Program-made: the position numbers and the translations under genes | Shown here: positions 1,432-25,899 of the stretch, in pieces | Layout: each line of letters opens with the position of its first letter | Numbering within the stretch: position 1 is the stretch's first letter | The notes under the pieces: generated by a model | What the model was told of the DNA's origin: nothing | The model's input: only the letters and a program-made list of their open reading frames with translations | Databases searched by the model: none | Origin: a virus | Virus record (IMG/VR): IMGVR_UViG_3300035670_013237 | Coordinates: 60,001-92,000 of that record | DNA length: 32,000 bases | Reading direction: 5' to 3' (one strand)

Positions 1432-1720
1432 TGCCTCTGCTGATGAGACTTCATTTTTAGAGAAGCTCTTCGAAAAGTTGCTTGAGTCATCATCAACATT
1501 CAAGCAGCTCAACGAGAGCTTCTTTACGATCATCTCAAAGCTCGCACAGCTAGCTGAGACCGTGATTGATCTGGTTCAAACTGTCAAAGCGCAGCAGGTT
1601 GCAATCTCTGAGTTGTATGAGCTGCAGGATCTTGCGCTGCGGCGCATGAAAGATTTAGCGGGGGGCCCTGACATCAAGAGTTTTCCGCTTCGGGAGAAGA
1701 AAGATGAAAAGCTTAACTAA
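1412..1720 (+). CDS. hypothetical coiled-coil protein (start 1412 or 1421)
   Basis: 102-aa ORF overlapping the end of the previous gene; heptad-like helical sequence; no motif recognised. Confidence 0.5.
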   Translation: MERMKNNASADETSFLEKLFEKLLESSSTFKQLNESFFTIISKLAQLAETVIDLVQTVKAQQVAISELYELQDLALRRMKDLAGGPDIKSFPLREKKDEKLN

Positions 1721-2114
1721 TTTTATCAAAAAGTTGTTCTTAAGTGCCAAGAAAAATTGGCAAATTTTGCTCCTTGTACTAGGCACAATATTTGCTTACA
1801 TTTTTTTTCGAAGGCAAGAAGTGAACTTCGATGCACGTTTGAACGATATTCGTAAGGCTCATGGACAGCAACTTCAGGAAATACAAGATGCACATGCTGA
1901 TGAAATAAAGCGAAGGCAGGAGAATGAGCGGCTCTTGAAGATCGCTCTGGAAGAAATTCAGAAGAAGTACGGCGAGGCAATGAAGAAGCTCGATGAGAAG
2001 AAAAAGAAGGAAATCAAGAAGATCGTCGAGGAGCACGGCCGCGACCCCGAAGCACTCGCCGATAGGCTCTCGTCTGCGACTGGATTCAAGATTGTTCTAC
2101 CCCTGGAGGATTGA
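1704..2114 (+). CDS. membrane-anchored coiled-coil protein (N-terminal TM)
   Basis: GGGAGAAG SD before ATG 1704. WQILLLVLGTIFAYIFF is a hydrophobic segment, followed by a K/E-rich helical region. Confidence 0.6.
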   Translation: MKSLTNFIKKLFLSAKKNWQILLLVLGTIFAYIFFRRQEVNFDARLNDIRKAHGQQLQEIQDAHADEIKRRQENERLLKIALEEIQKKYGEAMKKLDEKKKKEIKKIVEEHGRDPEALADRLSSATGFKIVLPLED

Positions 2115-2116
2115 TT

Positions 2117-2635
2117 ATGAAGAAGAAGCTGGTCTCAATTTTGCTCTCGTTCACCATGCCATTCTATGGAATTGCCCGGGCCGAGGAATCCACACCCAAA
2201 GAAAATATTAGCCTTCCAAAGATGGAAACCCCTGTGGGTGAAGTTGACCCGGGGGAAGCCATCAGTCCCTTGAAGAGGGGCCAACGTGCGCCTTTCACAG
2301 GTGTGCATCTGTCTCCTGCTGCTGTCGCACGAATCATTGTCGAGCTTGAGTCCTTCCCCGAGAAACTGGGCATTGAACAGGCACGACTTCGTGATGAGCT
2401 GAACGCACAGTGCAAAAAGCTGGTGGACGATGAAAAGACTTCGCATGAGACAACAAAGAGGACCACAGATGCCCAGCACAAGTCTGACATGGTTGAGATC
2501 AAAAACCTGACAGAGCAGCTTGAACAAGAGAAGAAGAATCGCTCCAATGTATATCTTTGGGCAGGCGTAGGCGTCATGAGTGGCATCGGTATCACACTTT
2601 TGACAGTATATGCTGTCAACAAAGCTTCTGAGTGA
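2117..2635 (+). CDS. exported/membrane protein with signal peptide and C-terminal TM
   Basis: GGAGGA SD 6 nt before ATG 2117. MKKKLVSILLSFTMPFYGIARA is signal-like; coiled-coil middle; VYLWAGVGVMSGIGITLLTVYAV is a C-terminal TM. Confidence 0.65.
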   Translation: MKKKLVSILLSFTMPFYGIARAEESTPKENISLPKMETPVGEVDPGEAISPLKRGQRAPFTGVHLSPAAVARIIVELESFPEKLGIEQARLRDELNAQCKKLVDDEKTSHETTKRTTDAQHKSDMVEIKNLTEQLEQEKKNRSNVYLWAGVGVMSGIGITLLTVYAVNKASE

Positions 2636-2677
2636 TGTAGCACATATTTATGCTTGCTTTTTGATGGAGAAGATACA

Positions 2678-2986
2678 ATGTCAGAGCAAGCTAAAAATGT
2701 TGAAGAGGCTAAGAAAGAGCGCCCCAAGAAGACTACACCTTGGTACTGGATGCGTAATGACAAGGGGCAGGCTTCGATTACTGCCACGATGGTTTTCATT
2801 TCTTTTTGGGTGACGACACTCGCATACCTTGCCTCCACCGTGAACAAGGTTGGTGATCTTGAGATTCGCTCATTCGATGTTGCTGCCTGCACAGCTTATT
2901 TTGTCCCGATCCTGACGCTCTACTTCGGTCGTAAGTGGACTGACTCTAAGAATTCACAGAAAGATGACGATAAGTCGGAGGCATGA
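2678..2986 (+). CDS. small two-TM membrane protein (holin-like topology, unproven)
   Basis: GGAGAAG SD before ATG 2678. Two hydrophobic segments: ITATMVFISFWVTTLAYLAS and VAACTAYFVPILTLYF. Confidence 0.55.
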   Translation: MSEQAKNVEEAKKERPKKTTPWYWMRNDKGQASITATMVFISFWVTTLAYLASTVNKVGDLEIRSFDVAACTAYFVPILTLYFGRKWTDSKNSQKDDDKSEA

Positions 2987-2987
2987 C

Positions 2988-3773
2988 ATGCGAAAGGTGA
3001 CTGTCACTGAGAATGCCATAAGAGAGCTCATTCGCGGTGCATTTGATGGTAGGGGAATGAGGCTCCTAGAAAAATTGGCGGACCCACAGCCTATCAAGGT
3101 GAATGATGTCGTCGACCCATCAGCGGCAGTGACTGATCCGGACAACGAGGACTTTCGTCCGACGACCCCCGCTGAGTTCCAAGTTGCCGTAAAAACTTTG
3201 GTCGAAGAGCTGCCGAGCGATAAGATCGCAGATACATATGAGAAGCTTGTCAAAGCTTTAAACCAACCTGAAGATAAGGATAAGAAGATGAAGAAAGACA
3301 CAAAGGCAGAAGCGTTCGTGAGATCTCTTGTGCGCAGGACGATAAATGAGAGTCTGGAAGATGAGATGCCTCTTCCAAAGGTACCGCGCAAGTATGCTGG
3401 TGCGGTGAACACCCCTGGTGGTGGTCTCGAAGCCATTGCGAAGAGATTCGGTCTATCAACCTCAGGAGCGAAGGGTGCTGTTGATAAGGCCCTCTCCAAA
3501 GCGCAGTGGTCCGCATCAATGCAGTTCGGCTCCCCTGAGGAGATGGAAGAGATTGTCCTCACTGCCGTGAAGGACTACATCGATTTCCTGAAGGGCTCTG
3601 GTGAGCTTGAGCCCGCTGAGGTCAAGCTCCTGAAGGACAACCCAGGCATCGTGAGCTCTCTTGATGGATTCCGCGAATTTCTTCACAGTTACATCAAGCG
3701 CGCGCGCAAGCAGCGCCCTGAGGGTGTACCGATGAAGAAGGGCGACATTCCCTGGACCAATCGCGGCGAGTGA
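2988..3773 (+). CDS. hypothetical protein, loose member of the N-terminal leader family
   Basis: GGAGG SD 7 nt before ATG 2988, just after the upstream TGA (2984-2986). Starts MRKVTVTENAIRELIRGAF. Confidence 0.65.
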   Translation: MRKVTVTENAIRELIRGAFDGRGMRLLEKLADPQPIKVNDVVDPSAAVTDPDNEDFRPTTPAEFQVAVKTLVEELPSDKIADTYEKLVKALNQPEDKDKKMKKDTKAEAFVRSLVRRTINESLEDEMPLPKVPRKYAGAVNTPGGGLEAIAKRFGLSTSGAKGAVDKALSKAQWSASMQFGSPEEMEEIVLTAVKDYIDFLKGSGELEPAEVKLLKDNPGIVSSLDGFREFLHSYIKRARKQRPEGVPMKKGDIPWTNRGE

Positions 3774-4531
3774 ATGACATGAAGCGAGAGATTGTCGCTG
3801 CGGTTCAATTTGAACCTAAAATACTTGACGTGGACCAGAACCTGGCCACGGCTCAGCAGCTTGCTTTTGAGGCCGCTGCGAAGGGTGCTCGCGTCATCGT
3901 ATTGCCAGAGTTATGCACTTCTGGTAATGTTTTTAAGAATGCCAGAGAAGCTGTCGACTGTGCACAAGAAAAAGGCGGCTATCAAACTGCCGGATTCTTG
4001 CCCATCGCTCGCCGCTTCAATTGCTACATAGCCTTCGGGTATCCTGAGCTCTGCGACGGTAAGCTGTACAACTCAGCTGCCGTCGTTGGACCAGATGGTG
4101 TCGTTGGTAACTGCCAGAAGCACAATCTCTGGGGTTCTGATAATCTCTGGGCGCAGCCCTCCGAGCAGCTGCACCCGGTGATTATGACGCCTGTGGGACG
4201 CCTTGGAGTCCTCATCTGCAGGGATTCTGCGAACAAGTTTAGAGAATCTTACCGATTCTATAAGCCTGGGCAGAAATTCTACTCGATGGGCTCAGTCGAC
4301 ACGATAGCTCTGCTGACAAATTGGGGAATGCAGTATGGTTATCCTGACGCAGCATGGGTCGACCTCGCAGAGCAGACAGGCGCCAACGTCATCGTTTCTA
4401 ACAGGATCGGGAAAGAGCGTGACTTGAAGTTCAAGGGTGGCTCTTGTGTCATTGATAGAGATCGTCGTATTTGGACGAATGGATCCTCGTTCACCGAGGC
4501 AGCCGTCGTCGGCGGAGCTGTCCTGCTGTGA
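3770..4531 (+). CDS. carbon-nitrogen hydrolase (nitrilase superfamily)
   Basis: The E-K-C triad contexts are present: VIVLPELCTSG, GNCQKHNLW, GVLICRDS. Start is GTG 3770 (overlapping the upstream TGA) or ATG 3779. Confidence 0.8.
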   Translation: MNDMKREIVAAVQFEPKILDVDQNLATAQQLAFEAAAKGARVIVLPELCTSGNVFKNAREAVDCAQEKGGYQTAGFLPIARRFNCYIAFGYPELCDGKLYNSAAVVGPDGVVGNCQKHNLWGSDNLWAQPSEQLHPVIMTPVGRLGVLICRDSANKFRESYRFYKPGQKFYSMGSVDTIALLTNWGMQYGYPDAAWVDLAEQTGANVIVSNRIGKERDLKFKGGSCVIDRDRRIWTNGSSFTEAAVVGGAVLL

Positions 4532-14265: not shown

Positions 14266-15831
14266 TTATTGGTTTTCGTACCAAGACACTGACACTGCGG
14301 CGTTATCAAGATCATTAGACACGCGCTGCGCTGTGAAGGTGAGAGTCTCGCCTGTTGCCACGAAGAAATTTTCGTCCTGGAGCTTCAGGGTCAACGACTC
14401 ATTCGCAGCGATGATTAGAGACTTTAACAGTTGCGTCTTGCCAGAGATTGAAGAAATTGATGTGGCTGCTGTGTCATACGAGGCTATTGATCTTGTTGAG
14501 TCCACATGCTGAAAATTGACTGGACCACCAAGTCCCATATTTTTGTAGATGAAGATCTTGAGGAGCTTGCCTGCAGCTGAGCTGCCTGAGTCATTCGCGA
14601 CTGATAGATTAAATGGGTCAATCTCACCGTAGCAGCTCTGGCCGTTGAAGACAGTGTTCGCACGAATCGTCAAGATCGGTACCTCTGTTGCTGAAATCGC
14701 CGACTTGACGGCTGAGATTGAGAATGCAGTCCCGATGTTTTTAGTGATCAGGCCCTCGTTGAAGGTGCTCGCCGAAGCGCCCTTGACTGTCACGCTGCTT
14801 GCTAACGACCCACTGTTGTAGGCACCCCACATTGCATACATGCCTGGATTTTGCAGGACCACAGAAGTGCTTGTATTCGCGCGCTCTATCATGTGGCACG
14901 ATACTAAGAGCCCAGTTTGCGGATTTTCTACGCTAAATGTTGGGTTGCCAAACCCAAGGTACTGGTAACCCACGCCATAGATGTTTCCCTTGGTTTTATC
15001 GATCGTGAAGCCAGACGGGCCACTCCCGTCGAGGCTGTCGATATTCCACGATGACTGTGTGATAAAAGTTTGTGTCGGGAGCGTGCCCGCCTGGACCGTC
15101 GCCGTCGTGGCGATCGGGGATGCACCATTTAGGATCGAAAATGTCCCGCCCCGAGGACCAGGGGTCATTGAGGTAAAATACACGGTCCCATCGATGGACT
15201 CAGCGTGCCAGCCTCCGCCCACCTGCGTGTAGTCTGCTTGCGAAATCTGATATGATGTCTGGTTCGCAGAGCCCCCGCCGTTGATCGTGACAGATTTTGT
15301 GCTGCCCTCAAGTGTGACAGTGAGGGTCGCAGCTCCTGCGGGCGGTGAGGTGATCGAGAATGATCTGATTTCTTTTCTGGACGCTTCGCGGTGGAGGATT
15401 CCAAAAGAATTTGAGCCGCTCACTGCGAAGAACATTCCGCACTCATCATTTCCGACGCCCGCGAGCTGCATAGTGTCATCGGCACCTGCTGTAAAAGCCG
15501 CCGTGAGGCGACAGATGCCACCTTGGCCCGCTCTGTACTTGTTACTTCTGGTCAGGCGAATCTGCGAGAAACTGTGATTTTCGGCGCCAGAAGTGCATGA
15601 CATCACTGCGCTTGTTGTGCTGACACCCGCACCCGTGCCGTGTGAGCCTGTGCTCCATAAAATGTTGTTTGTTCCGTAGACAAAAGTTGCCTGCCCTGTG
15701 GGCGTCATCTCCGACACGAGTGCGGTGCCGAATGGACCTTGTGCATTTGCGTTTGTTAGCGAAATGCTCGCTGTCGAGTAGCTCACATTAACATCGACAC
15801 TTTTCTTGGCGAGGGTGGTATAGCCTGACAT
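14266..15831 (-). CDS. beta-rich S/T/G/N-rich protein, probable virion structural protein (capsid or fibre type not resolved)
   Basis: 521-aa ORF with composition typical of jelly-roll or fibre proteins; contains WNIDSLDGSGPSGFTIDKTKGNIYGVGYQYLGFGNPTF. No enzymatic motif. Confidence 0.4.
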   Translation of the reverse strand: MSGYTTLAKKSVDVNVSYSTASISLTNANAQGPFGTALVSEMTPTGQATFVYGTNNILWSTGSHGTGAGVSTTSAVMSCTSGAENHSFSQIRLTRSNKYRAGQGGICRLTAAFTAGADDTMQLAGVGNDECGMFFAVSGSNSFGILHREASRKEIRSFSITSPPAGAATLTVTLEGSTKSVTINGGGSANQTSYQISQADYTQVGGGWHAESIDGTVYFTSMTPGPRGGTFSILNGASPIATTATVQAGTLPTQTFITQSSWNIDSLDGSGPSGFTIDKTKGNIYGVGYQYLGFGNPTFSVENPQTGLLVSCHMIERANTSTSVVLQNPGMYAMWGAYNSGSLASSVTVKGASASTFNEGLITKNIGTAFSISAVKSAISATEVPILTIRANTVFNGQSCYGEIDPFNLSVANDSGSSAAGKLLKIFIYKNMGLGGPVNFQHVDSTRSIASYDTAATSISSISGKTQLLKSLIIAANESLTLKLQDENFFVATGETLTFTAQRVSNDLDNAAVSVSWYENQ

Positions 15832-16507: not shown

Positions 16508-16527
16508 GGGCCGCTTTTGCGCGGCCC
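16508..16527. terminator. GC-rich hairpin between convergent genes (bidirectional terminator candidate)
   Basis: GGGCCGC-ttttgc-GCGGCCC, flanked by GAGAAAAC on the plus side, which reads GTTTTCTC after the hairpin on the minus strand. Confidence 0.6.
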
Positions 16528-16534
16528 CTTCCAA

Positions 16535-17065
16535 TTAATCTTCTTTCTTTTCACCCGAAGCATACTTAATGCCCATTACGGTGCCAATGATTGAGAAAGA
16601 GTTTGTCAGTAAGATGCCTAGAGTTGAAGTCCAGGCATTGCCAATTACTTCAGTGTCTTTATCTAGAGCGATCGCAGTCACATATAGGGCTGTTGTAATG
16701 AGGCCCACACTAATGACCAATCCGAGTGCGATACCAACCACACGTCTCATCAATTGAAATTGCGTTCTTTTGCGAAGTAAATCTAGGTCTTGCTCTGCGG
16801 CAGCCTTGGCGTCCTCTGCGATGATAAGAGCATTCTTGAGCTTCTCTTGAGTTCTCTCAAGTTCTTTATTCTGCTCTTGAATTTGCTTCATTATTTCAAG
16901 GCGCTTCTTCCTCGTCTCGCTGTCTTTCGAGCTGGCCTCGTTGAGGTACACTTCAAAAGTGTCGTTGTCACTCTCAAGAACTTTCAACACGTTACCCTCA
17001 AGAAAGATTCCTTTCTCTTGAGCCAGATTGATTAGCTCTTGCTGGACTTCACGGGGAAGCTTCAT
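16535..17065 (-). CDS. coiled-coil protein with two C-terminal TM helices (third gene of the two-component operon)
   Basis: ATGA overlap with the receiver gene stop. K/E-rich heptad region, then VVGIALGLVISVGLITTALYVTAIAL and STLGILLTNSFSIIGTVMGI. Confidence 0.7.
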   Translation of the reverse strand: MKLPREVQQELINLAQEKGIFLEGNVLKVLESDNDTFEVYLNEASSKDSETRKKRLEIMKQIQEQNKELERTQEKLKNALIIAEDAKAAAEQDLDLLRKRTQFQLMRRVVGIALGLVISVGLITTALYVTAIALDKDTEVIGNAWTSTLGILLTNSFSIIGTVMGIKYASGEKKED

Positions 17066-17496
17066 GCATAGACCTTGAAGGGCTGGGTCTTTTCTTTGTA
17101 ACCCCTATAATCGCTCTTGAAACTAAGCAGCCTGGGCTCTATCTCATCAGACTTGACAATCCAGAATTGCGCGCCTGCTGAAATGGCTTTGGCAATTTCT
17201 TTTCTGTCTGAAGATGATGAGATGATGCCAATGACCACACCATTTCCATAAATTTCATTGACACGTCGCACGAGCTCAATTCCATCAAACGACGAGCCAA
17301 CAATGTTGAGGTCGACAAAAACGCATTCAGGCTTCTTCGTCTCACCCCGTGTCCATCTCTGGCACAATTCTTCAGCTGCCTCAGATGAATTCACTGTCTG
17401 CAATTGAAGTGTTATATCAAGGATGCTGCACGCATCTTCGAACACGAGGTGAAATAAGTTCTCGTCGTCGACGAGAAGAATAGACTCGATGATCAT
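17062..17496 (-). CDS. stand-alone response-regulator receiver (CheY-like)
   Basis: ATGA overlap with the kinase stop. LLVDDE acidic pocket, VFVDLNI phospho-acceptor context, IISSSS and FWIVKS (conserved Lys). No output domain. Confidence 0.8.
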   Translation of the reverse strand: MIIESILLVDDENLFHLVFEDACSILDITLQLQTVNSSEAAEELCQRWTRGETKKPECVFVDLNIVGSSFDGIELVRRVNEIYGNGVVIGIISSSSDRKEIAKAISAGAQFWIVKSDEIEPRLLSFKSDYRGYKEKTQPFKVYA

Positions 17497-18551
17497 CGCA
17501 ACCTCACTTTGAGCAACGTGCCCAATTCTAGTTTTTCGCACTCAATTGCAAAGCCATGTTCCCGCAAGATGGCGTTGCAGATGTTTAGACCGAGACCAGT
17601 GCCTTTTTCCTTTTGATTGGCTCGTCTAGTATATGGATAGGACATTCGGCTGAAGTCTTCCTGTGACATGCCCCGCCCATTGTCCTGGATCGCCATTGTG
17701 GCAGGATCGTGCATGTAGACCTTGACCCACTTTGTCTCTGAATCGTTGTATTTCAAACCATTCCTGATCAGGTTGTCGACTGCTGTGCAGAAAAGCGACT
17801 CATTGACGGGCAGGGTTATCAGGGGACTCACGACGACTTGGTCGTTATAAGACGTCATTGCCAGGTACGCGTTCAATATCTGCTGGAGATCCTTCTCTTC
17901 TTTCTCAAGGACCTTGTCTTCGCGCACAAGATTCGTGAACTCTTTCACACCCACATACACTTTCTGGGTGTGCTTCAGTCCATCTTTTAGAAGCCTGAGT
18001 GGTATTTCTAGCCTGTACGACTCAATGACATCTGGGCTCAATCTTCGCTCAATTGAAGCTATGCCACGCGGTATATAGGTATTGATTCCGCTGTGCATGT
18101 CATGGCGTAGTATCTTGGCAGCGTACTCAAGGTAGACATTCTTTTGATTGACATCGTTGAACGACTCAACGAGCCTCGTGATGTCCTGTCTAATCGATGA
18201 GAACCCCGTGTGCCTGCCGTTCTCGTCAAATTCAGCCTTAATGTAAGTGTCGACGTGATAGAATTTCCCACACTTTGAGCGATTGGTGACGATTGAGTTC
18301 CAGATCTCACGGTTCTTCACCGTGGTGGTGTACATGTTTCTCCAAAAATCTTTGGAGTGCACACCTGAATTAACGATCTTGTGATCTTTCCCGATGAGCT
18401 CGGGCAGCGTCCACCCTGACACTTCAATAAATTTTTCATTTGCGTAGATGATGCGTCCCTTCGTATCCGTGCGGCTGATCAAGGCTGCTGCGTCAATCAG
18501 GTCGTGTGGAAGAGTCGACAGGGTCATCATAAATGTTTTAGGGTCACTCAA
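17493..18551 (-). CDS. cytoplasmic PAS-domain sensor histidine kinase
   Basis: PAS domain (RIIYANEKFIEVSGWTLPELIGK...GFSSIRQDIT); H-box ILRHDMHSGIN; N-box DNLIRNGLKY; G1 IQDNGRGM; G2 GTGLGLNI. No TM segment. Start is TTG 18551 or ATG 18530. Confidence 0.85.
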   Translation of the reverse strand: MSDPKTFMMTLSTLPHDLIDAAALISRTDTKGRIIYANEKFIEVSGWTLPELIGKDHKIVNSGVHSKDFWRNMYTTTVKNREIWNSIVTNRSKCGKFYHVDTYIKAEFDENGRHTGFSSIRQDITRLVESFNDVNQKNVYLEYAAKILRHDMHSGINTYIPRGIASIERRLSPDVIESYRLEIPLRLLKDGLKHTQKVYVGVKEFTNLVREDKVLEKEEKDLQQILNAYLAMTSYNDQVVVSPLITLPVNESLFCTAVDNLIRNGLKYNDSETKWVKVYMHDPATMAIQDNGRGMSQEDFSRMSYPYTRRANQKEKGTGLGLNICNAILREHGFAIECEKLELGTLLKVRLR

Positions 18552-18596: not shown

Positions 18597-18854
18597 TCAG
18601 CAAATTAGCTTCACATTCTCATGAGAATAAAAGTAAGCTGTCAAAATTTGCCCGCAGGGCTGCCCAGGCTTTGTGAAAAACAACCTAAAATAAACCAAAA
18701 AATTCCCCCTAGGGTCTTTGGAAGACTTGTGCTCTACGTTGAGTATGAGCGCAGCATTTCCATCAACTACTTCACCAGGGGCTAGAAAGTCTCCAGGCAC
18801 AAGATCTTTTGCAGCCCTCGTCTTTACTTGTTTTTCTTCCAAGGGATCCTCCAT
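18597..18854 (-). CDS. small protein of the PGD/SH3-like paralog family
   Basis: LVPGDFLAPGEVVDGNAALILNV shows the family signature [PVI]-G-[DE]-hydrophobic followed by beta-strand patterning. Confidence 0.5.
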   Translation of the reverse strand: MEDPLEEKQVKTRAAKDLVPGDFLAPGEVVDGNAALILNVEHKSSKDPRGNFLVYFRLFFTKPGQPCGQILTAYFYSHENVKLIC

Positions 18855-19096
18855 TCAAAGCCCGACCACACTGTGGTAGATTCAAAGTCATAGGATATAC
18901 CGTTGCTCCATAAGATGGTGACATCCCAAAGTGGTGTGCCCTCAGAGATGAGCATGCCCTCAAATTCATGGGGAGAGTCGCTGCGCCTGAGACAGACTAC
19001 GAGCCCAAGGTCATCGTCGAAATACTTCGAAAAGACGATCATGCCGGGCACCAACTCCTCTGTCGTTACATCTCTCAAGCGCCTATTCACCGCCAT
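18824..19096 (-). CDS. small protein of the PGD/SH3-like paralog family
   Basis: ELVPGMIVFSKYFDDDLGLVVCLRR...VTILWSNG. Confidence 0.55.
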   Translation of the reverse strand: MAVNRRLRDVTTEELVPGMIVFSKYFDDDLGLVVCLRRSDSPHEFEGMLISEGTPLWDVTILWSNGISYDFESTTVWSGFEWRIPWKKNK

Positions 19097-19150: not shown

Positions 19151-19432
19151 ATGAAGAACAAAAACACGATTCTCATAGAGATCGCGATACAGTCGGCTGG
19201 GAGAGTGTTCTCAGGGTTATACTGGGGACGATCAACTCCGCTTGAGAGCATACCTTACCTCATTGAGGAAGAGTGTGATCGACAGATCACATCGGTATTC
19301 AAGTCTGAAGATAAGATCTCAGAAAGAGACGTTCACATGTGCAAAATGTATGCCGTCCAGTATTATAACGAATACATGTCTAGAATTATGACCCATAGAA
19401 TGAATCAAATCGAGAGTGAACAAGATGCCTGA
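19151..19432 (+). CDS. hypothetical protein
   Basis: 93-aa ORF downstream of the promoter. Confidence 0.5.
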   Translation: MKNKNTILIEIAIQSAGRVFSGLYWGRSTPLESIPYLIEEECDRQITSVFKSEDKISERDVHMCKMYAVQYYNEYMSRIMTHRMNQIESEQDA

Positions 19433-20252
19433 GGGACCTGAGCTTGCGATTAGTCGTGACATGCTACGACCTGCGTTGGTCGGGAATCAATTGTTGCACA
19501 TGGGTTTCATGGGACGTTATGCAAATAAGTCCCCTGAGGGTTATCAGGATCTTTCTTTTGATTTGTCCCGATCACCCGCAAATATCGTGGAAGTTGACGT
19601 CAAGGGCAAATTCATGTGGTGGAAACTTTCCATCGCCGGCGAACCTGAGCCTTGGTATGTGTGGTGTACGTACGGCATGACCGGCCAGTGGTCGCGGATC
19701 GCCTCAAAACATACATCAATTATTGCGTATCTAGATAACGAAACGTGCATGTTCTTCAATGACCAACGTCGTTTTGGCACCATTAAATTCATCAAAGGCG
19801 ATAAACTTCACCAAAAGAAACTATCCACCCTCGGACCGTGCATTCTTGGTGGCTCGCTAACACCAGAAATATTTGCAAAAAATATTCTAAAGAAACCCTC
19901 AATCACAATTGCAGAAGCGCTGATGGATCAGGGAGTGATATCGGGGGTGGGTAACTATATCAAGGCAGAATGCCTGTATCGAGCGGGCATATCTCCCTGG
20001 CGGGCAGTGACTGATATTGCTGCTCCTGAATTTGTGAAACTGCACCGTGAAGTGCTTGATGTGGCTCGTGAGTCATATGAGTCCCAAGGCGCAACGATTT
20101 ATACGTACAAGAACGTTGATGAATCTGAAGGGTCAGCGCAGTTCGAATTCCAGGCATATGGTCGCAAAACGTGTCCAAGAGGACACGATATCATAAATGA
20201 ACAAACGCCTGAAGGAAGAACGTCATGGTGGTGCCGGACCTGCCAGAAATAA
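19425..20252 (+). CDS. Fpg/Nei family DNA glycosylase/AP lyase
   Basis: N-terminus MPEGPEL (catalytic Pro2/Glu3), H2TH region (GVGNYIKAECLYRAGISP) and a C-terminal zinc-finger region CPRGH...WWCRTC. ATG 19425 is chosen so that Pro is residue 2. Confidence 0.85.
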   Translation: MPEGPELAISRDMLRPALVGNQLLHMGFMGRYANKSPEGYQDLSFDLSRSPANIVEVDVKGKFMWWKLSIAGEPEPWYVWCTYGMTGQWSRIASKHTSIIAYLDNETCMFFNDQRRFGTIKFIKGDKLHQKKLSTLGPCILGGSLTPEIFAKNILKKPSITIAEALMDQGVISGVGNYIKAECLYRAGISPWRAVTDIAAPEFVKLHREVLDVARESYESQGATIYTYKNVDESEGSAQFEFQAYGRKTCPRGHDIINEQTPEGRTSWWCRTCQK

Positions 20253-20266
20253 ATTACGAGGTTTGA

Positions 20267-20452
20267 ATGTTGCCAGGCGATCTTGTCGTGACTTGGACGA
20301 ACGAGGTGGGATTCTTGATATCAGTTATCCTTGTGTCTGAGGATCCCAACAGGGTGAAAAGGGATTATTACGTACTCACCCGCAGTAAAGTATTGAAACT
20401 TGCCTCGGGGTTGTCGGCAATTCGTAGGATTCAAATTGCCTCAAGGGGTTGA
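20267..20452 (+). CDS. small protein of the PGD/SH3-like paralog family
   Basis: MLPGDLVVTWTNEVGFLISVILV is nearly identical in pattern to MPGDLVYLTWSTCG at 24975. Confidence 0.55.
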   Translation: MLPGDLVVTWTNEVGFLISVILVSEDPNRVKRDYYVLTRSKVLKLASGLSAIRRIQIASRG

Positions 20453-20652
20453 CCGTGAAACCAGGTGACATGTTGTTTCTCAATCGTCAATATCGCGTTG
20501 ATCCTGACAATCCTCAGTTTTTTATTTTGTGTATTTCTGTGGTTGAGGACGAAGTTTGCGTCTTGCAAACATGGTTTAAAGATTCAACCACCAACTTGCA
20601 ATCGACCACTCAAGGGGCTCTTAGCCATTTCTATCACAAAGCTATTACATGA
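20449..20652 (+). CDS. small protein of the PGD/SH3-like paralog family
   Basis: VKPGDMLFLNRQYRV...FFILCISVV. Start is TTG 20449 or GTG 20455, overlapping the upstream stop. Confidence 0.5.
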   Translation: MTVKPGDMLFLNRQYRVDPDNPQFFILCISVVEDEVCVLQTWFKDSTTNLQSTTQGALSHFYHKAIT

Positions 20653-20936
20653 AGCACCCAATTACAGGAGCACTCATTGCGTTCAATTGTCCCATGAGTC
20701 TCTTGTCACCCCATGACATGGAAACTATCGAGCGTTCAGGATATGAAGATGAGTTTCAGTTGACTGAACCCAGTTTCATTTGCAGCGAAAAAGACGTAGG
20801 GTTGCTGATTGACAAAAAAGTTGCACGATCACTGTACAGTGCAAGTCAATCAATATATTACAACATACTGTTTGCCCGAGGATCAGGGTGGATTAATTCT
20901 CAATGGGTTCGTCATCCTTATTGTAAAGTCTTATGA
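20649..20936 (+). CDS. small hypothetical protein (shares a C-terminal GW.N..W motif with the next gene)
   Basis: ATGA overlap; C-terminus SGWINSQWVRH. Confidence 0.5.
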   Translation: MKHPITGALIAFNCPMSLLSPHDMETIERSGYEDEFQLTEPSFICSEKDVGLLIDKKVARSLYSASQSIYYNILFARGSGWINSQWVRHPYCKVL

Positions 20937-21268
20937 AGAAATCGTTCAACGTTGGTGACATGGTCTGCATAGATCAATCTACTGACATTTTAACGAGCGC
21001 CCTCCTGGGCTCTGACAGTTTGGTCCTATTAGATGATGGTCAGGTCACCATACTCCAGGGTGGTGGAAGTATCCACGTGCCCATGAAGGATACCTCACCT
21101 AGCATGTACAAATCTGACATCGCTGTGATCATCCAGTGCATTTCTTTCATTAAAGAAGTCAAGACGGTGAATAAAAGAATCCCCTCGTACGAAGTGGGAT
21201 TCAGTAAACTCCTGACCCCACAGGGGATCGGGTGGTGCAACAATAGTTGGTTAAGATTGGTCGACTGA
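20933..21268 (+). CDS. small protein of the PGD/SH3-like family with a C-terminal GW.N..W motif
   Basis: ATGA overlap; FNVGDMVCID near the N-terminus; C-terminus IGWCNNSWLRLV. Confidence 0.55.
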   Translation: MKKSFNVGDMVCIDQSTDILTSALLGSDSLVLLDDGQVTILQGGGSIHVPMKDTSPSMYKSDIAVIIQCISFIKEVKTVNKRIPSYEVGFSKLLTPQGIGWCNNSWLRLVD

Positions 21269-21269
21269 G

Positions 21270-21298
21270 TGCAAATTTTTCGTTGATTATGTTATCAT
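21270..21298 (+). promoter_or_regulatory. sigma70-like promoter TGCAAA-N17-(TGt)TATCAT upstream of uvdE
   Basis: Same hexamers as the pol X promoter. ATG 21312 follows 13 nt later and a GAGGTG SD lies in between. Confidence 0.5.
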
Positions 21299-21311
21299 GA
21301 CCATGAGGTGA

Positions 21312-22247
21312 ATGATGCTAGGCGTTTGTTGTCATTGGCTAGAAGAACGTGTGAAGCCCAAGGGCAAAGTCGAAGTTGTGAATGCGATGGACGAGCGTGT
21401 CCTGCAGCTCGGCCGCTACAGAGACGGGAAGTACTCGCATGAGCAGATCATGTCGACGTACGTCAATAACGCGACGAATCTCGCGAACATGTTACCCAAG
21501 ATCGCGGGGCACGGTGTCAGGCTGTTTCGCATCTCTTCCGCGCTATTTCCTCTCGCGGACCAGGTCGATCGATCCTTGTGGGACAACGACACCGTGCGGG
21601 GAATCCTCCGTGGTGCTGGCGACTTCATCAGGCAAAATGGTATGCGTGTCTCCACACACCCAGGCCAGTTCTGCGTTCTATCATCTGACACTGACAAGGT
21701 AATTGAGAACGCTATCAACGAGCTCAACCTACATGCATGGCTCTTCGACACCATGGGTCTTGACCACTCCCCTCAATATGCCATCAACATCCACGGGGGC
21801 AAGTCAGACCGTGCATCCCGGCTCATCGAGCAGATCAAGTCCCTGCCTGACAGCACACGCAAGCGTCTCACTCTCGAGAACGACGAGACAGCATACTCTC
21901 TCCTCGATCTCCTCGAAGTCCACAAAGAAACCGGGACACCGCTTGTGTGGGACTCCCACCACCACACCTTCAATGACGGTGACCTGACGATGGAAGAAGC
22001 TATGGGACTCGCTTCCGCCACATGGCCTGATGGCATCAAACCCTTGCAACACATCAGCAACACTGAACCCCACTTTATGTCGGGCGGCTCATTCACCGAG
22101 CGCCGCAAACACTCCGACCTAATTCACTACGTGCCAGAGCCCCAGCTCTCAGCACTTCGGGATGGAACGGTCGACTGTGAAGTCGAGGCGAAGCTGAAGA
22201 ATGTATCAGTCTTCAAGATGGCGAAAGATTTCGAAATTCCGATTTGA
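21312..22247 (+). CDS. uvdE: UV-damage endonuclease (UvdE family)
   Basis: STHPGQFCVLSS, INIHGG, LTLENDE and VWDSHHH are the TIM-barrel metal-site motifs of UVDE. Confidence 0.85.
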   Translation: MMLGVCCHWLEERVKPKGKVEVVNAMDERVLQLGRYRDGKYSHEQIMSTYVNNATNLANMLPKIAGHGVRLFRISSALFPLADQVDRSLWDNDTVRGILRGAGDFIRQNGMRVSTHPGQFCVLSSDTDKVIENAINELNLHAWLFDTMGLDHSPQYAINIHGGKSDRASRLIEQIKSLPDSTRKRLTLENDETAYSLLDLLEVHKETGTPLVWDSHHHTFNDGDLTMEEAMGLASATWPDGIKPLQHISNTEPHFMSGGSFTERRKHSDLIHYVPEPQLSALRDGTVDCEVEAKLKNVSVFKMAKDFEIPI

Positions 22248-22257
22248 AGGATTAGAT

Positions 22258-22503
22258 ATGGAGGGGGTTGACATGGTGGCAGTCACTGAATTTCAGGTCC
22301 ACATTTCCCAACAGGAAGAGTTCGAGAATTGTGCCTCTGCAGTGTTCGACTACACAGAGCAGCGCCTGATGCGCTATGTGAAGCTCATCAGCGACCGTCA
22401 GCAGAAGCAGGCACTCAATGATCTCCTCGAGAAATATAGGAAGGGCCGGGTCGCAATCTGCTGGAAGGGTGGTAATCCCTCTTGGCTTGATTTGGACATT
22501 TGA
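22258..22503 (+). CDS. hypothetical protein
   Basis: GAAGGA SD before ATG 22258; 81 aa; not GroES-like. Confidence 0.5.
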   Translation: MEGVDMVAVTEFQVHISQQEEFENCASAVFDYTEQRLMRYVKLISDRQQKQALNDLLEKYRKGRVAICWKGGNPSWLDLDI

Positions 22504-22508
22504 ATGAA

Positions 22509-22537
22509 TTGAACATTTTCACGGATCATTGTATGTT
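22509..22537 (+). promoter_or_regulatory. sigma70-like promoter TTGAAC-N17-TATGTT, 6 nt before the groEL ATG
   Basis: Exact 17-nt spacer; no SD between the -10 and ATG 22544. Confidence 0.5.
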
Positions 22538-22543
22538 TTGTGC

Positions 22544-24142
22544 ATGAGCGAGAGCACAACACAAGTCCTATTCAAAAATGACGCCCGCCGCCAATTGTTC
22601 GTGGGCATGGAGATCGCTGCTGAGGCGGTGTCCACGACCCTTGGCCCAAAGGGTAAGACTGTCCTGATCCAACGTAAGGGTGAAGCGCCTATTGTCACGA
22701 AGGATGGCGTGACTGTGAGCAAGTCAATAAGGTTGCGCGATCCTGTGCAACGCATGGGTGCCGAGCTCATCCGCGAGGCTGCTGCACAGACAAATGAGAT
22801 CGCAGGAGATGGCACGACGACTGCGACTGTCCTCACGCACGCCATGGTGAAAGAGGGACTGAAGCTCCTCGAGGCCGGATATCCCGCGAAAGAACTATGC
22901 AAGGGCATTGAATTAGCGAGGGCCCGTGTGGATGAGAACCTTGCTGCTCTTGCGAAGCGCCTCACAACTGCTGAAGAGATTGCACAAGTGGGCACGATTT
23001 CGGCTAACGGTGACCGTAAGATCGGTGACCTCATTGCAGCAGCAATGGACAAGGTGGGCCGCGATGGCATCATCACGGTGGAAGATGCAAAGGGCATGGC
23101 GACTACCCTCGAGGTCGTCGAGGGCATGCAATTCGATCGCGGTTATCTTTCTCCTTACTTCGTCACCAACCAAGACCGCATGAGCGTCAACTATAATGAC
23201 GCTAGGGTCCTTCTGACTGATAAGAAGCTAAATAACCTAAGAGAATTAGTGCCAATTCTTGAGAAGGTGATGCAAGGCCGCCAGCCCCTCATCATCATCG
23301 CAGAGGACGTCGAAGGTGAAGCTCTACAGGGCCTCGTGCTCAACAGAGTCAATGCGAACCTGCCCGTCGTGGCGGTCAAGGCGCCTGGATATGGACAGCA
23401 TCGGCATGACCTACTCACAGACATCTCAACTCTGACAGGCGCGAAGCTCGTGTCAGCCTCAACAGGACTCAAGTTGGAATCTCTCACCTTGCAGGATCTT
23501 GGCACCCTGAAGCGTGTGGTGGTCGATGCTAAATCGACGACTCTCGTGGGAACAGGGTCAACAAAGTCAAGCGTTGAGGCTCATGTGGAGAACCTCCGCA
23601 CACAGCTTCAAGATGTGACCCTCACGGTCGACGACGTCACGAAGCTGAAGGTGCGAATTGCGAAACTGGCGAGCGGTGTCGCGGTCATTCGCGTGGGCGG
23701 GGCGACAGAGGTCGAGATGATCGAACGCAAGTATAGAATTGAAGATGCCCTCAATGCTACTCGTGCTGCTGCGGAGGAGGGCATCGTGCCCGGCGGCGGC
23801 ATGGCACTTGCTACAATCACGAGCACAATAGATCTTTCTGCTGACTTGCCGCAAGAAGAAGCCATGGGAGCTTCAATCATCACACGAGCATGCCTTGCAC
23901 CGCTGAAGAGGATCTCGCAGAACGCAGGAGTAACACCAGAGGTAATCCTCAGTGAACTCCAGCGAAACCCAGGTAAGGGCTACAACGCCGCGACAGGCGA
24001 GTATGTCGATCTCATCGCGGCCGGTGTCATCGATCCTGTCAAGGTGACACGGACGGCCTTGAAAAACGCTGCCTCAGTTGCCACGACATTCTTGTCTCTT
24101 GATGCAGTCGTCTTTGATGAGGAGGGACAGGCGGGTGAGTAA
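22544..24142 (+). CDS. groEL: GroEL (Cpn60) chaperonin
   Basis: Near-canonical LGPKGKTVLI, PIVTKDGVTVSK, AGDGTTTATVLTHA and VAVKAPGYG motifs along the full length. ATG 22544 gives an MSESTTQVLF N-terminus. The protein ends ...EEGQAGE without a GGM tail. Confidence 0.95.
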   Translation: MSESTTQVLFKNDARRQLFVGMEIAAEAVSTTLGPKGKTVLIQRKGEAPIVTKDGVTVSKSIRLRDPVQRMGAELIREAAAQTNEIAGDGTTTATVLTHAMVKEGLKLLEAGYPAKELCKGIELARARVDENLAALAKRLTTAEEIAQVGTISANGDRKIGDLIAAAMDKVGRDGIITVEDAKGMATTLEVVEGMQFDRGYLSPYFVTNQDRMSVNYNDARVLLTDKKLNNLRELVPILEKVMQGRQPLIIIAEDVEGEALQGLVLNRVNANLPVVAVKAPGYGQHRHDLLTDISTLTGAKLVSASTGLKLESLTLQDLGTLKRVVVDAKSTTLVGTGSTKSSVEAHVENLRTQLQDVTLTVDDVTKLKVRIAKLASGVAVIRVGGATEVEMIERKYRIEDALNATRAAAEEGIVPGGGMALATITSTIDLSADLPQEEAMGASIITRACLAPLKRISQNAGVTPEVILSELQRNPGKGYNAATGEYVDLIAAGVIDPVKVTRTALKNAASVATTFLSLDAVVFDEEGQAGE

Positions 24143-25466: not shown

Positions 25467-25703
25467 ATGAGAATGACGATTGCTGAGCTCAGGCAGATAG
25501 TGCGAGAAGAAGTTGAGCGCAACAATCGTTGGCTCGCGGGATTTTTTATCGGCGGGGGAATTAGCGGGGGTCGCAAAGGAACGATCACACCTCCCCTCGG
25601 CTTGGGGACAGAAGAAGAACAAGAACACCATGGCGAAGAACAACAAGAAGAACCAAGGCAGGCAGGAGAAGAGCGGTGGGCGAGAGCGGGAAGACGCCGT
25701 TGA
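25467..25703 (+). CDS. small protein, strict member of the N-terminal leader family
   Basis: Starts [20 protein letters not shown]. The 3' 74 nt overlap infA in another frame within a purine-rich tract, so the true stop is uncertain. Confidence 0.5.
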
Positions 25704-25899
25704 ACTCAATGGCACAGTCGACGAGGCCCTACCCGGGACCTTTTTTAGGGTCATATGCGAGGGCGGTCACACGGTGCTCGCTACACTCTCAGGCAAATTG
25801 AGAATGAATCACATCAAGGTGCTTCCAGGTGACTCGGTCACTGTCGAGGTCTCACCTTACGATTTAACGCGGGGAAGGATTTGTTGGCGTAAGGCTTGA
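25630..25899 (+). CDS. infA: translation initiation factor IF-1 homolog with a basic N-terminal extension
   Basis: [63 protein letters not shown] aligns residue by residue with bacterial IF-1 (S1-like OB fold). It is preceded by [24 protein letters not shown]. Confidence 0.9.

Follow-up and report, generated by a model that had tools for sequence, protein, structure and literature searches.

A kinase, a receiver and a membrane hairpin conserved in large uncultured phages: a candidate redox-responsive control of host lysis

Introduction

For a lytic phage the chief decision of its life history is when to lyse the host, and textbook accounts of that timing turn on the accumulation of a holin or on lysis inhibition set off by superinfection. 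A viral stretch of 32,000 nucleotides (positions 60,001 to 92,000 of IMG/VR record IMGVR_UViG_3300035670_013237; hereafter the window) raises the question of whether some phages consult their host in another way. It carries three adjoining genes, for a soluble PAS histidine kinase, a receiver and a membrane protein. What does the kinase sense, on what does the receiver act, and what does the membrane protein do? We put the probability at about 0.5 that the three genes specify a phosphorelay, conserved in a large clade of big uncultured phages, which senses redox state and gates a holin-like effector of lysis. The more exacting version, in which a FAD-PAS kinase acts through a CheY-like protein and a heptad-phased coiled coil on a holin and so times host lysis, is tentative and falls somewhat short of even odds. 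A search of the literature on phage-encoded kinases, two-component systems and sensor-holins returned nothing relevant.

Results

Layout of the three-gene unit

The three-gene unit reported in a preliminary description of the window is real, and every feature listed there was recovered where it had been placed. On the minus strand the kinase comes first, the receiver-only regulator second and the two-TM third protein last, and a terminator closes the unit.

17493 to 18530, minus strand: kinase gene; soluble PAS histidine kinase of 345 aa, ATG start
17062 to 17496, minus strand: receiver gene; CheY-like receiver-only response regulator of 144 aa, Pfam Response_reg
16535 to 17065, minus strand: third gene; protein of 176 aa with head, coiled coil and TM hairpin
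16508 to 16527, minus strand: intrinsic terminator hairpin; seven G-C pairs, then GTTTTCT
18615 to 18644, minus strand: promoter-like site upstream of the kinase gene; TTGACA, 18 nt, GAGAAT

An in-frame TTG at 18551 offers an alternative kinase start and explains the upper coordinate of the preliminary description; we take the ATG as the start because the public gene call is 345 aa long and the homologues measure 344 to 346 aa. Direct reading of the sequence finds the kinase stop and receiver ATG overlapping as ATGA at 17496-17493, and the receiver stop and third-protein ATG doing the same at 17065-17062. Both reported overlaps are therefore present, and they argue for translational coupling of the three genes; the "stoichiometric co-translation" that had been read from them does not stand, since an overlap speaks for coupling and not for a fixed stoichiometry. 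The terminator reported at the end of the unit is equally sound: besides its seven G-C pairs and T tract, it folds at -22.3 kcal/mol (z = -3.3), more stably than any of 200 shuffled versions. The promoter-like site came from a consensus scan, with 10 of 12 positions matched, and is a pattern only, with no evidence of function. No tRNA genes were found in the window.

The kinase and its PAS sensor

Two domains of the kinase score above their Pfam cut-offs, HATPase_c (PF02518) at 55.8 bits against 26.4 (E = 7e-15) and PAS at 31.6 bits against 22.6.

18171 to 18500, minus strand: PAS sensor domain of the Aer/MmoS/NifL flavin type, about residues 11-120
18102 to 18104, minus strand: codon of H143, the predicted phospho-accepting His, in H-box LRHDMHSG
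17508 to 17795, minus strand: HATPase_c catalytic domain (PF02518) with N, G1 and G2 boxes

R142-H143-D144 is invariant in 70 kinase cores of relatives, and the N-box (NLIRNGLKYN), G1 (DNGRG) and G2 (GTGLG) show little or no variation among 70 relatives. Pfam HisKA gives no match to the kinase; the H-box lies at the expected spacing upstream of the N-box, and NCBIfam models of the EnvZ/CpxA type align over the region. Hydropathy found no hydrophobic or TM segment. The kinase is as first described: it has the N, G1 and G2 boxes, a predicted H-box and a PAS domain, and no TM segment.

The best solved relatives of the PAS domain are MmoS PAS-A (3EWK, E = 2e-28), Aer PAS (8DIK) and NifL PAS1 (2GJ3). 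Its G25, H50, N83 and R114 align to G28, H53, N85 and R115 of Aer, which are flavin-pocket residues (PMC9668731). The H/N/R triad is kept in 40 of the 72 PAS domains of the clade, and the position equivalent to Aer T18 is A or S. With FAD-type pocket residues in place, the domain probably binds FAD. Redox, light and metabolites had all been named as possible cues; redox is now favoured, because the domain resembles FAD-binding PAS domains and keeps the residues of their pocket. The FAD-binding redox sensors of Aer, MmoS and NifL are thus its closest likeness, from which it differs in being joined directly to a minimal soluble kinase core in a virus, with flavin binding predicted.

The receiver

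Pfam Response_reg (PF00072) recognises the receiver with 39.7 bits, its cut-off being 30.2.

17311 to 17313, minus strand: codon of D62, the predicted phospho-accepting Asp; motif FVDLN, invariant in the alignment

D10, D11, D62, S93-95, W112 (the aromatic switch residue) and K115 are invariant in 28 relatives, identity across the clade is ~70%, and the 28-relative alignment holds no output domain. The full phospho-acceptor pocket without an effector, as described from the window itself, is shared by these relatives. Homologues number 3835, and the 120 listed are 139-147 aa long with a receiver domain only. CheY (with FliM and CheZ), DivK and Spo0F are built alike: receiver-only, ~140 aa, with a complete pocket and an output exerted by binding a partner. 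The phage receiver differs from them in its viral context, in a conserved C-terminal extension (DIEPRL...FKVY), and in its putative partner, a new head borne by the coiled-coil membrane protein of the next, overlapping gene.

The third protein

The AlphaFold2 model of the third protein (mean pLDDT 84.7) has a small N-terminal head and a single helix (residues 35-133) continuing into TM1; a short loop then leads to TM2 at 139-170. Model and hydropathy together bear out the N-domain, heptad region and two C-terminal TM helices ascribed earlier to the 176-aa protein.

16880 to 17065, minus strand: head domain, residues 1-62; putative receiver docking site, from conservation and co-occurrence
16793 to 16879, minus strand: coiled-coil linker, residues 63-91; 29 aa, the shortest length class
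16664 to 16741, minus strand: TM helix 1, residues 109-134, from hydropathy and the AlphaFold2 helix
16565 to 16633, minus strand: TM helix 2, residues 145-167; WxxxxGILLTNSFSIIGTxMGxKY

Family alignments show invariant residues in the head (E23-G24-N25, K28, Y40, D48, R52, R55-L56). Five basic residues (R98, K99, R100, R107, R108) precede TM1, and TM2 is almost invariant, with a small or polar residue at every fourth position (G150, T154, S158, T162) in addition to G161xxxG165. The C-terminal tail reads KYASGEKKED, and both termini are predicted to be cytoplasmic (N-in/C-in). Family members range from 176 to 228 aa and share a large cytoplasmic N-terminal part, an extension of 105-160 aa.

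By sequence and profile comparison, this is a new, closed family of head, coiled coil and highly conserved TM hairpin. The third protein has 1022 close homologues, and just 257 representative clusters hold the family among 1.84 billion proteins. Searches of PDB sequence profiles, PDB folds and BFVD folds matched only an uncharacterised family member, which is uninformative; Pfam, PHROGs and NCBIfam yielded no holin family; and PADLOC defence-system models matched none of the three proteins. Membership in a known, unrelated family, the outcome that would have undone the original proposal, was found in none of the profile, PDB, BFVD or cluster searches. Several names were set aside: Fusion_gly, Vip3A_N and Asp4 fall below the Pfam threshold and reflect coiled-coil or hydrophobic composition, while the JGI names FlhF, MutK and RuvC-like are spurious coiled-coil annotations. 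An Rz-type i-spanin was rejected too, as the TM helices are C-terminal and the coiled coil must be cytoplasmic, being fused to PAS, GAF or kinase domains in sister variants.

Cell-wall hydrolases at the edges of the module

Next to the module, the first kb carries 0.32 peptidoglycan-hydrolase genes per kb, against 0.01-0.03 per kb at a distance of 2-6 kb; this enrichment at the module edges, roughly 10-20-fold, involves five families. A hydrolase gene stands at most 150 nt from the module in 24 of 70 dereplicated loci, in five families and eleven arrangements, and anywhere in the fetched flanks in 43 of the 70 (locus counts, here and below, are not phylogenetically independent). In L016 the third gene shares 4 nt with a GH24 lysozyme gene, and in L004, L070 and L088 a distance of 1-11 nt separates it from M15 or GH19 genes. 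One-component variants, in which PAS or GAF takes the place of the head before the hairpin, have a hydrolase within 1.2 kb in 6/6 cases. From the endolysin genes beside the module in relatives we infer a role in lysis, and of the outputs first suggested (lysis timing, superinfection exclusion, a membrane channel) lysis timing is favoured on the same grounds. Because relatives carry the module beside cell-wall-degrading enzymes, the virus probably takes its cue for bursting the host from the host's own state.

The window itself fits a holin-like effector less well. Neither in the window nor in its closest relatives (L100 and L101) could a peptidoglycan hydrolase be recognised within 10-16 kb of the module, and a separate candidate lysis cluster sits ~14 kb from the module, so another protein may be the holin.

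1704 to 2114: Rz-like spanin candidate
2654 to 2986: small 2-TM protein, candidate holin

The third protein, moreover, is larger than typical holins and has no holin match in Pfam or PHROGs, and where a Phage_holin_10 gene lies close by, as in a minority of the fetched loci, it could be a regulator and not the pore.

These points give substance to the most durable alternative, which we nonetheless consider unlikely: that, with the same wiring, the third protein serves as an antiholin or a regulator anchored in the membrane, and uses its conserved TM2 to bind a separate holin and to hold or release it on signal. Its size and lack of a holin family would then be natural, its almost invariant TM2 would suit a conserved helix-helix partner, and the holin could be the small 2-TM protein at 2654-2986 in the window or one of the separate candidates near the module in L004, L010, L032, L069, L070 and L073. 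Against this, the third gene of L016, L041 and L088 comes immediately before the endolysin gene, with no other small 2-TM gene between, and Phage_holin_10 occurs in just a minority of the fetched loci.

A phosphorelay with a membrane output other than lysis strikes us as rather improbable; such an output could be a gated leak of ions or protons that adjusts the energy metabolism of the host, the exclusion of superinfecting phages, or command of some membrane machine of the host. The lineage of the window has no lysis gene beside the module, the conserved polar TM2 is compatible with a channel or with binding of a host membrane protein, and a redox-type PAS would fit energy homeostasis; but five unrelated hydrolase families are enriched at the module edges, the hydrolases near all six one-component variants are hard to explain without a connection to lysis, and the PADLOC result offers no link to known defence proteins.

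Receiver linkage, domain swaps and heptad phase

A receiver gene lies directly upstream of the head-bearing gene in 60/60 cases and of head-less variants in 0/5; among the 60 junctions, 24 have a 4-nt overlap and 19 a 1-nt overlap. The PAS-coiled coil-hairpin and GAF-coiled coil-hairpin proteins have no kinase or receiver nearby. On other viral contigs, proteins in which the head and coiled coil are followed by HisKA and HATPase are encoded directly after kinase and receiver genes. Since the head can give way to PAS or GAF, and the hairpin to a kinase core, the head would be the input of the protein and the hairpin its output. The same swaps weigh against a reading confined to lysis: some viruses use the head to drive a kinase core, so it is not lysis-specific.

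The linker from head to hairpin measures 29 + 7n aa in all 219 distinct family proteins, in which the only lengths seen are 29, 36, 43, 50, 57, 64, 71 and 78 aa, and an independent check of the heptad spacing by motif distance agrees in 206 of 207. The distance from head to His in the kinase-core variants is 47, 61 or 68 aa, and that from PAS to hairpin is constant at six heptads. Two single cases were left out of consideration, a FecCD permease fusion (P0419), treated as a chimeric assembly, and a protein with an I-TevI-like DNA-binding tail (P0483), treated as a homing-endonuclease disruption. Variation by whole heptads between input and output is a known signature of phase-dependent coiled-coil signalling, one that the third-protein family has in common with the signalling helices of sensor kinases and chemoreceptors; its output differs in being a TM hairpin and not a DHp or enzymatic domain, and it is the sister variants that carry a kinase core. 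Wiring from kinase to receiver to head to hairpin is well supported by these comparisons of sequence, and the gene linkage together with the heptad-quantised coiled coil strengthens the original suggestion that the receiver acts on the membrane protein.

Might the third protein instead be an accessory input or scaffold, in the manner of LiaF or CpxP, with the target of the receiver elsewhere, in a host motor, pili or another phage protein? It is common for CheY-like receivers to have distant targets, and L002 has a kinase and receiver with no adjoining third gene. We regard this as a long shot, however: a hairpin fused to PAS or GAF with neither kinase nor receiver nearby cannot be the input of a two-component system, the head occupies the sensor position of the kinase in the head-coiled coil-kinase variants, and a heptad-phased coiled coil points to transmission of a signal and not to scaffolding.

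Distribution and conservation of the triad

A search of IMG/VR for exact kinase peptides found nothing, whereas an alignment-based scan did find relatives, with at least 461 viral contigs encoding the third protein. Of 63 dereplicated related viral loci, 57 have the whole triad in order (again not phylogenetically independent), and the next most frequent neighbour gene of the module is present in just 31 of 84, so that the surrounding genes change. Kinase homologues number 4400. The clade that carries the triad is a large group of big uncultured phages, common in lakes and oceans. In GenBank phages (INPHARED, DNA and protein searches) neither the third protein nor the receiver has a relative, and the sole INPHARED match to the module is an Aer PAS on P1-like records. 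Among 185,579 species genomes the third protein has 8 matches, all on MAG contigs and in eight different phyla, which we read as mis-binned phage contigs and do not use to infer a host; it was not found in isolate genomes. A flanking structural protein of 521 aa is ~30% identical to virion proteins of T4-like cyanophages and also matches a 485-kb uncultured phage.

Recent capture of a host two-component operon without a dedicated viral role, which the preliminary description had named as a way for its proposal to fail, is effectively refuted: although PAS, HATPase and receiver domains are ultimately cellular in origin, there are thousands of viral homologues at 40-90% identity that keep their order while the contexts change, isolate genomes lack the third protein, and the G+C of the module (0.46-0.47) is that of the adjoining 1-kb windows (0.44-0.47, at 18-21 kb).

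Discussion

The redox-sensing phosphorelay that we propose would work in five steps. The soluble kinase would sense an intracellular redox or energy cue through its Aer/MmoS-type PAS, probably with FAD bound. It would autophosphorylate on H143 and pass the phosphate to D62 of the receiver, a chemistry suggested by the conservation of all the catalytic residues. The phosphorylated receiver, having no output domain of its own, would dock on the head of the third protein, as the absolute gene linkage and the domain swaps suggest. The signal would then travel along the phase-preserved coiled coil to the C-terminal N-in/C-in hairpin. As a holin-like or holin-controlling element, the hairpin would set the moment at which the cytoplasmic membrane gives way and lets endolysin through to the wall. 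Lysis would thereby be timed to the metabolic state of the host, a conclusion for which the endolysin genes at the module edges in relatives provide the basis.

Known lysis systems resemble this scheme in part. In T4 lysis inhibition, the holin T is controlled by the antiholins RI and RIII, and RIII binds the cytoplasmic N-terminus of T. A signal likewise shifts lysis timing there through a protein that binds the soluble domain of a membrane lysis protein, but there is no homology, the T4 signal is superinfection, sensed in the periplasm, whereas that of the module is proposed to be intracellular redox conveyed by phosphorylation, and the effector of the module combines a TM hairpin with a long phased coiled coil. 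The LytSR-LrgAB and CidR-CidAB systems of Staphylococcus and Bacillus tie a two-component system to holin- and antiholin-like proteins and to murein hydrolase activity. They are cellular and transcriptional, with a DNA-binding regulator; the module is viral, lacks a DNA-binding domain and would exert its control post-translationally. The S21 pinholin, of class II and N-in/C-in, has two TM helices with a short periplasmic loop and positive-inside charge, as does the third protein, which also shares with class II holins a small-xxx-small TM2 and, in many relatives, a gene directly upstream of the endolysin. It differs from them in matching no holin profile and in its 105-160 aa cytoplasmic extension, and its formation of a pore is putative.

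If the proposal is true, the module would be the first two-component system encoded by a virus to have a membrane pore as its direct, post-translational output, and the one-component PAS- and GAF-holins, with the head-kinase cascades, would make up a modular "sensor-holin" toolkit. The third protein would found a family with a modular logic of input, phased coiled coil and TM-hairpin output, its head would be a new class of target for CheY-like regulators, and the module offers a testable case of a cytoplasmic coiled coil signalling into a two-helix membrane hairpin. The natural one-component versions could become ligand- or redox-gated lysis switches in synthetic biology. Large environmental phages, finally, would be reading the redox or energy state of their hosts and responding post-translationally, with effects on burst size, viral production and the release of carbon in lakes and oceans.

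Gene layout and components of the module

Three open reading frames on the minus strand (16535-18551) encode, in order, a PAS histidine kinase, a receiver and a membrane protein that we call the third protein, and our checks of frames, domains and junctions bear out the preliminary description of this three-gene unit in every particular.

Start ATG at 18530, minus strand: PAS histidine kinase, 345 aa
17062-17496, minus strand: receiver, 144 aa, receiver domain alone
16535-17065, minus strand: third protein, 176 aa; head, coiled coil and transmembrane (TM) hairpin
16527-16508, minus strand: terminator hairpin, seven G-C pairs followed by a T tract, directly past the last stop
18644-18615, minus strand: sigma-70-like pattern match upstream of the kinase gene

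The kinase most probably begins at this ATG, since 345 aa is the length in the source contig's public gene call and in the closest homologues. Both gene junctions read ATGA, which implies the translational coupling already proposed; the claim that co-translation would also be stoichiometric went too far, as an overlap implies coupling only. The terminator said to close the unit folds at -22.3 kcal/mol (z = -3.3).

The kinase was described as soluble, with a complete set of catalytic boxes. Pfam recognizes above threshold one PAS domain and HATPase_c, and no HisKA; no hydrophobic segment was detected, and the H-box (L-R142-H143-D144-M-H-S-G), N-box, G1 (DNGRG) and G2 (GTGLG) vary little or not at all among 70 related kinase cores. 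The receiver is indeed CheY-like and output-less, and its D10, D11, D62, S93-95, W112 and K115 do not vary among relatives.

The PAS domain most resembles MmoS PAS-A (3EWK, E = 2e-28), Aer (8DIK) and NifL PAS1 (2GJ3), all of which bind FAD. The flavin-pocket residues, of a kind that had been proposed as worth seeking, are present: G25, H50, N83 and R114 correspond in the alignment to Aer G28, H53, N85 and R115, which contact the isoalloxazine ring and are common to MmoS (PMC9668731). The LOV cysteine is absent from this PAS domain, making a blue-light adduct unlikely. Among 72 distinct PAS domains of the clade, an H/N/R triad is found in 40 and H/R/A in 32.

On the input side, many relatives have additional PAS or GAF domains, TM segments at the N-terminus or a second paralogue of the kinase. 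The input side is evolving; the receiver, at about 70% identity, and the output stay constant. Kinases of other lineages (294-718 aa) bear one or two TM segments at the N-terminus as well as additional PAS or GAF domains; the window has the minimal, soluble form. Two paralogues stand upstream of one receiver in, for example, the related viral loci L007, L013, L020, L036, L062, L064, L072, L074, L077 and L086.

Distribution among viruses

The window's assembly contig is 86 kb long, and the third protein also occurs on a 271-kb contig. Close metagenome homologues number 1022 for the third protein, 4400 for the kinase and 3835 for the receiver, the longest of their contigs measuring 402 kb, and at least 461 viral contigs in IMG/VR encode the third protein. 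We compared 80 of these IMG/VR loci together with others, dereplicated thereafter. Of the 63 dereplicated loci whose upstream DNA is long enough, 57 have the kinase, receiver and third gene in that order on the same strand. The genes around the triad are not conserved; the commonest of them occurs in 31 of 84 loci. No relatives of the module were found in GenBank phage records, and among 185,579 species-representative genomes a scan found only 8 matches, all on MAG contigs labelled with 8 different phyla, which we read as mis-binned phage DNA. The preliminary description had weighed recent capture of unconserved host genes; we reject it because the triad is conserved across viral loci while its surroundings change. 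The module is old, virus-restricted and mobile as a unit.

Neighbors in the window encode Fpg, UvdE, GroEL, IF-1, a NUDIX protein and a 5'-3' exonuclease. Other genes there include the following.

3770-4531, plus strand: carbon-nitrogen hydrolase (nitrilase superfamily); weak PHROG similarity to NAD synthetase (glutamine-amidotransferase part)
14266-15831, minus strand: 521-aa virion structural protein (phrog_1645), about 30% identical to T4-like cyanophage proteins
18597-18854 and 18824-19096, minus strand: overlapping small ORFs
19416-20252: Fpg/Nei glycosylase, repair
20267-20452 and 20449-20652, plus strand: overlapping small ORFs
21312-22247: UV-damage endonuclease UvdE, repair
22529-24142: full-length GroEL, chaperone
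25513-25899: IF-1-like protein

The run of Fpg/Nei, UvdE, GroEL and IF-1-like genes (19416-24142, 25513-25899) is unusual for a phage, and the same set accompanies the module, in rearranged order, in the window's closest relatives, L100 and L101. The structural protein offers the sole hint to the phage's wider affiliation; in GenBank it matches best the 485-kb uncultured phage LR745208.1 (32% identity) and next best T4-like Synechococcus phages. The four small ORFs (61-90 aa) flanking the module and the Fpg gene matched no family and by eye have a common N-terminal "(L)VPGD/PGD..." motif; they look like two overlapping pairs of a small paralogous family. The hydrolase at 3770-4531 may be an auxiliary metabolic gene.

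A closed family with a fixed helical phase

A profile search of the third protein, suggested earlier as a check, matched no Pfam, PHROG or NCBIfam family, hence no known unrelated one. Because only 257 clusters among 1.84 billion representative proteins match it in an exhaustive profile search, the family is closed and without distant cellular relatives. An AlphaFold2 model built with 66 homologues (mean pLDDT 84.7) has four parts: a small N-terminal head, a helix (35-133) running into TM1, a ten-residue loop and TM2. The hairpin's N- and C-terminal flanks are basic and its loop acidic, from which we infer an N-in/C-in topology. Conservation is concentrated in the head (E23-G24-N25, K28, Y40, D48, R52, R55-L56) and in TM2, where W145 precedes GILLTNSFSIIGTxMGxKY, with a small or polar residue at every fourth position.

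From the end of the head to the start of the conserved C-terminal tail, 219 distinct proteins measure only 29, 36, 43, 50, 57, 64, 71 or 78 aa, and in 206 of 207 an independent motif-to-motif distance falls in the same series of whole heptads. The coiled coil is free to change in length and not in helical phase. Phase-preserving length variation is a known signature of signal transmission through coiled coils in sensor kinases and chemoreceptors. Such phase locking speaks against a passive coiled-coil spacer and against a hairpin that serves only as an anchor. Variants in which a kinase core follows the head have head-to-histidine distances of 47, 61 and 68, whole heptads apart, and in PAS-fused variants the PAS-to-tail spacing is constant at six heptads.

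Wiring of the module

Natural chimeras occur among the 257 clusters. In some, the head gives way to a GAF domain or to one or two PAS domains on the same coiled coil and hairpin, and the six loci of this one-component kind have neither kinase nor receiver nearby. Other variants keep the head and coiled coil and end in a HisKA-HATPase core instead of the hairpin; such genes occupy the third gene's usual place and overlap the stop of a receiver gene that in turn follows a PAS kinase. A receiver gene lies directly upstream of 60 of 60 head-bearing genes (4-nt overlap in 24, 1-nt in 19) and of 0 of 5 head-less genes (65 dereplicated loci; Fisher p = 1.2e-7, uncorrected for relatedness). Read most simply, this linkage and the domain swaps would make the head the input module taking the receiver's signal and the hairpin the output, the sensor domains of one-component proteins having nothing else to control. 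We consider this wiring very probably real, and the receiver likely acts on the head.

Some loci depart from the usual layout. In L002 (8001-10225, on a 192-kb contig) and L003, a 596-aa multi-PAS kinase and receiver are followed by an opposite-strand guanylate kinase gene and by no head- or hairpin-bearing gene; the output is either encoded elsewhere or lost. Between receiver and third gene lie 0.5-1.7 kb in L006, L007, L013, L054, L065, L071, L080, L083 and L084, the insert in six of the nine being a 162-aa protein (cluster c32, without family assignment) that has TM segments and, at its C-terminus, a coiled coil. Among family members, P0483 joins head and coiled coil to a DNA-binding tail like that of I-TevI, which probably reflects a homing endonuclease inserted into the gene, and P0419, in which head, coiled coil and TM1 are fused to a FecCD permease, is probably an assembly chimera.

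Output and its probable link to lysis

Different lineages place cell wall hydrolases of several Pfam types beside the module (PG_binding_1+GH19, PG_binding_1+Amidase_2, GH24 lysozyme, Peptidase_M15_3), and a fifth type belongs to an endolysin-like PHROG family. Across 70 dereplicated loci, hydrolase genes number 0.32 per kb in the first kilobase versus 0.01-0.03 at 2-6 kb; in 24 of the 70 one lies within 150 nt, in eleven arrangements of family, side and strand. The third gene overlaps a GH24 gene by 4 nt in L016 and is 1-11 nt from a hydrolase gene in L004, L070 and L088, and all six one-component loci (6/6) have a hydrolase within 1.2 kb. Repeated association with non-orthologous endolysins is the classical genomic signature of a holin or its regulator, and so favors such a role here. 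The output probably concerns lysis, whether the third protein forms the pore or regulates it, and the best explanation, to which we assign a probability of about 0.5, is that the third protein is a holin-like or holin-controlling element.

Several caveats attach to this reading. The third protein matches no holin family, and no recognizable hydrolase lies within 10-16 kb of the module in the window, L100 or L101. Some relatives have a Phage_holin_10 gene near the module, and in the window a separate group of genes at 1.7-3.0 kb (1704-2986, plus strand) may be a lysis cluster; no endolysin was recognized beside it.

1704-2114, plus strand: Rz-like spanin match (PHROG E = 1.4e-6); N-terminal TM segment and coiled coil
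2111-2635, plus strand: overlapping ORF; signal-peptide-like N-terminus, C-terminal TM segment
2654-2986, plus strand: candidate holin, 110 aa, two hydrophobic segments

The last of these could be a holin. A narrower version of the lysis reading, in which the third protein only regulates a separate holin, we consider rather unlikely.

Relation to known systems

The nearest functional analogues of the module (T4 lysis inhibition, LytSR-LrgAB and CheY-FliM) each differ from it in both components and mechanism, and it matches none of the PADLOC defence models. We found no paper, recent jumbo-phage reviews and surveys included, describing either phage two-component systems like this one or sensor-fused holin-like proteins. 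Taken singly, the parts are familiar, the two-component kinase and CheY-like receiver as much as the Aer-type PAS domain and the signalling coiled coil. What we rate as new is their assembly, a two-component pathway with a viral, membrane-embedded output.
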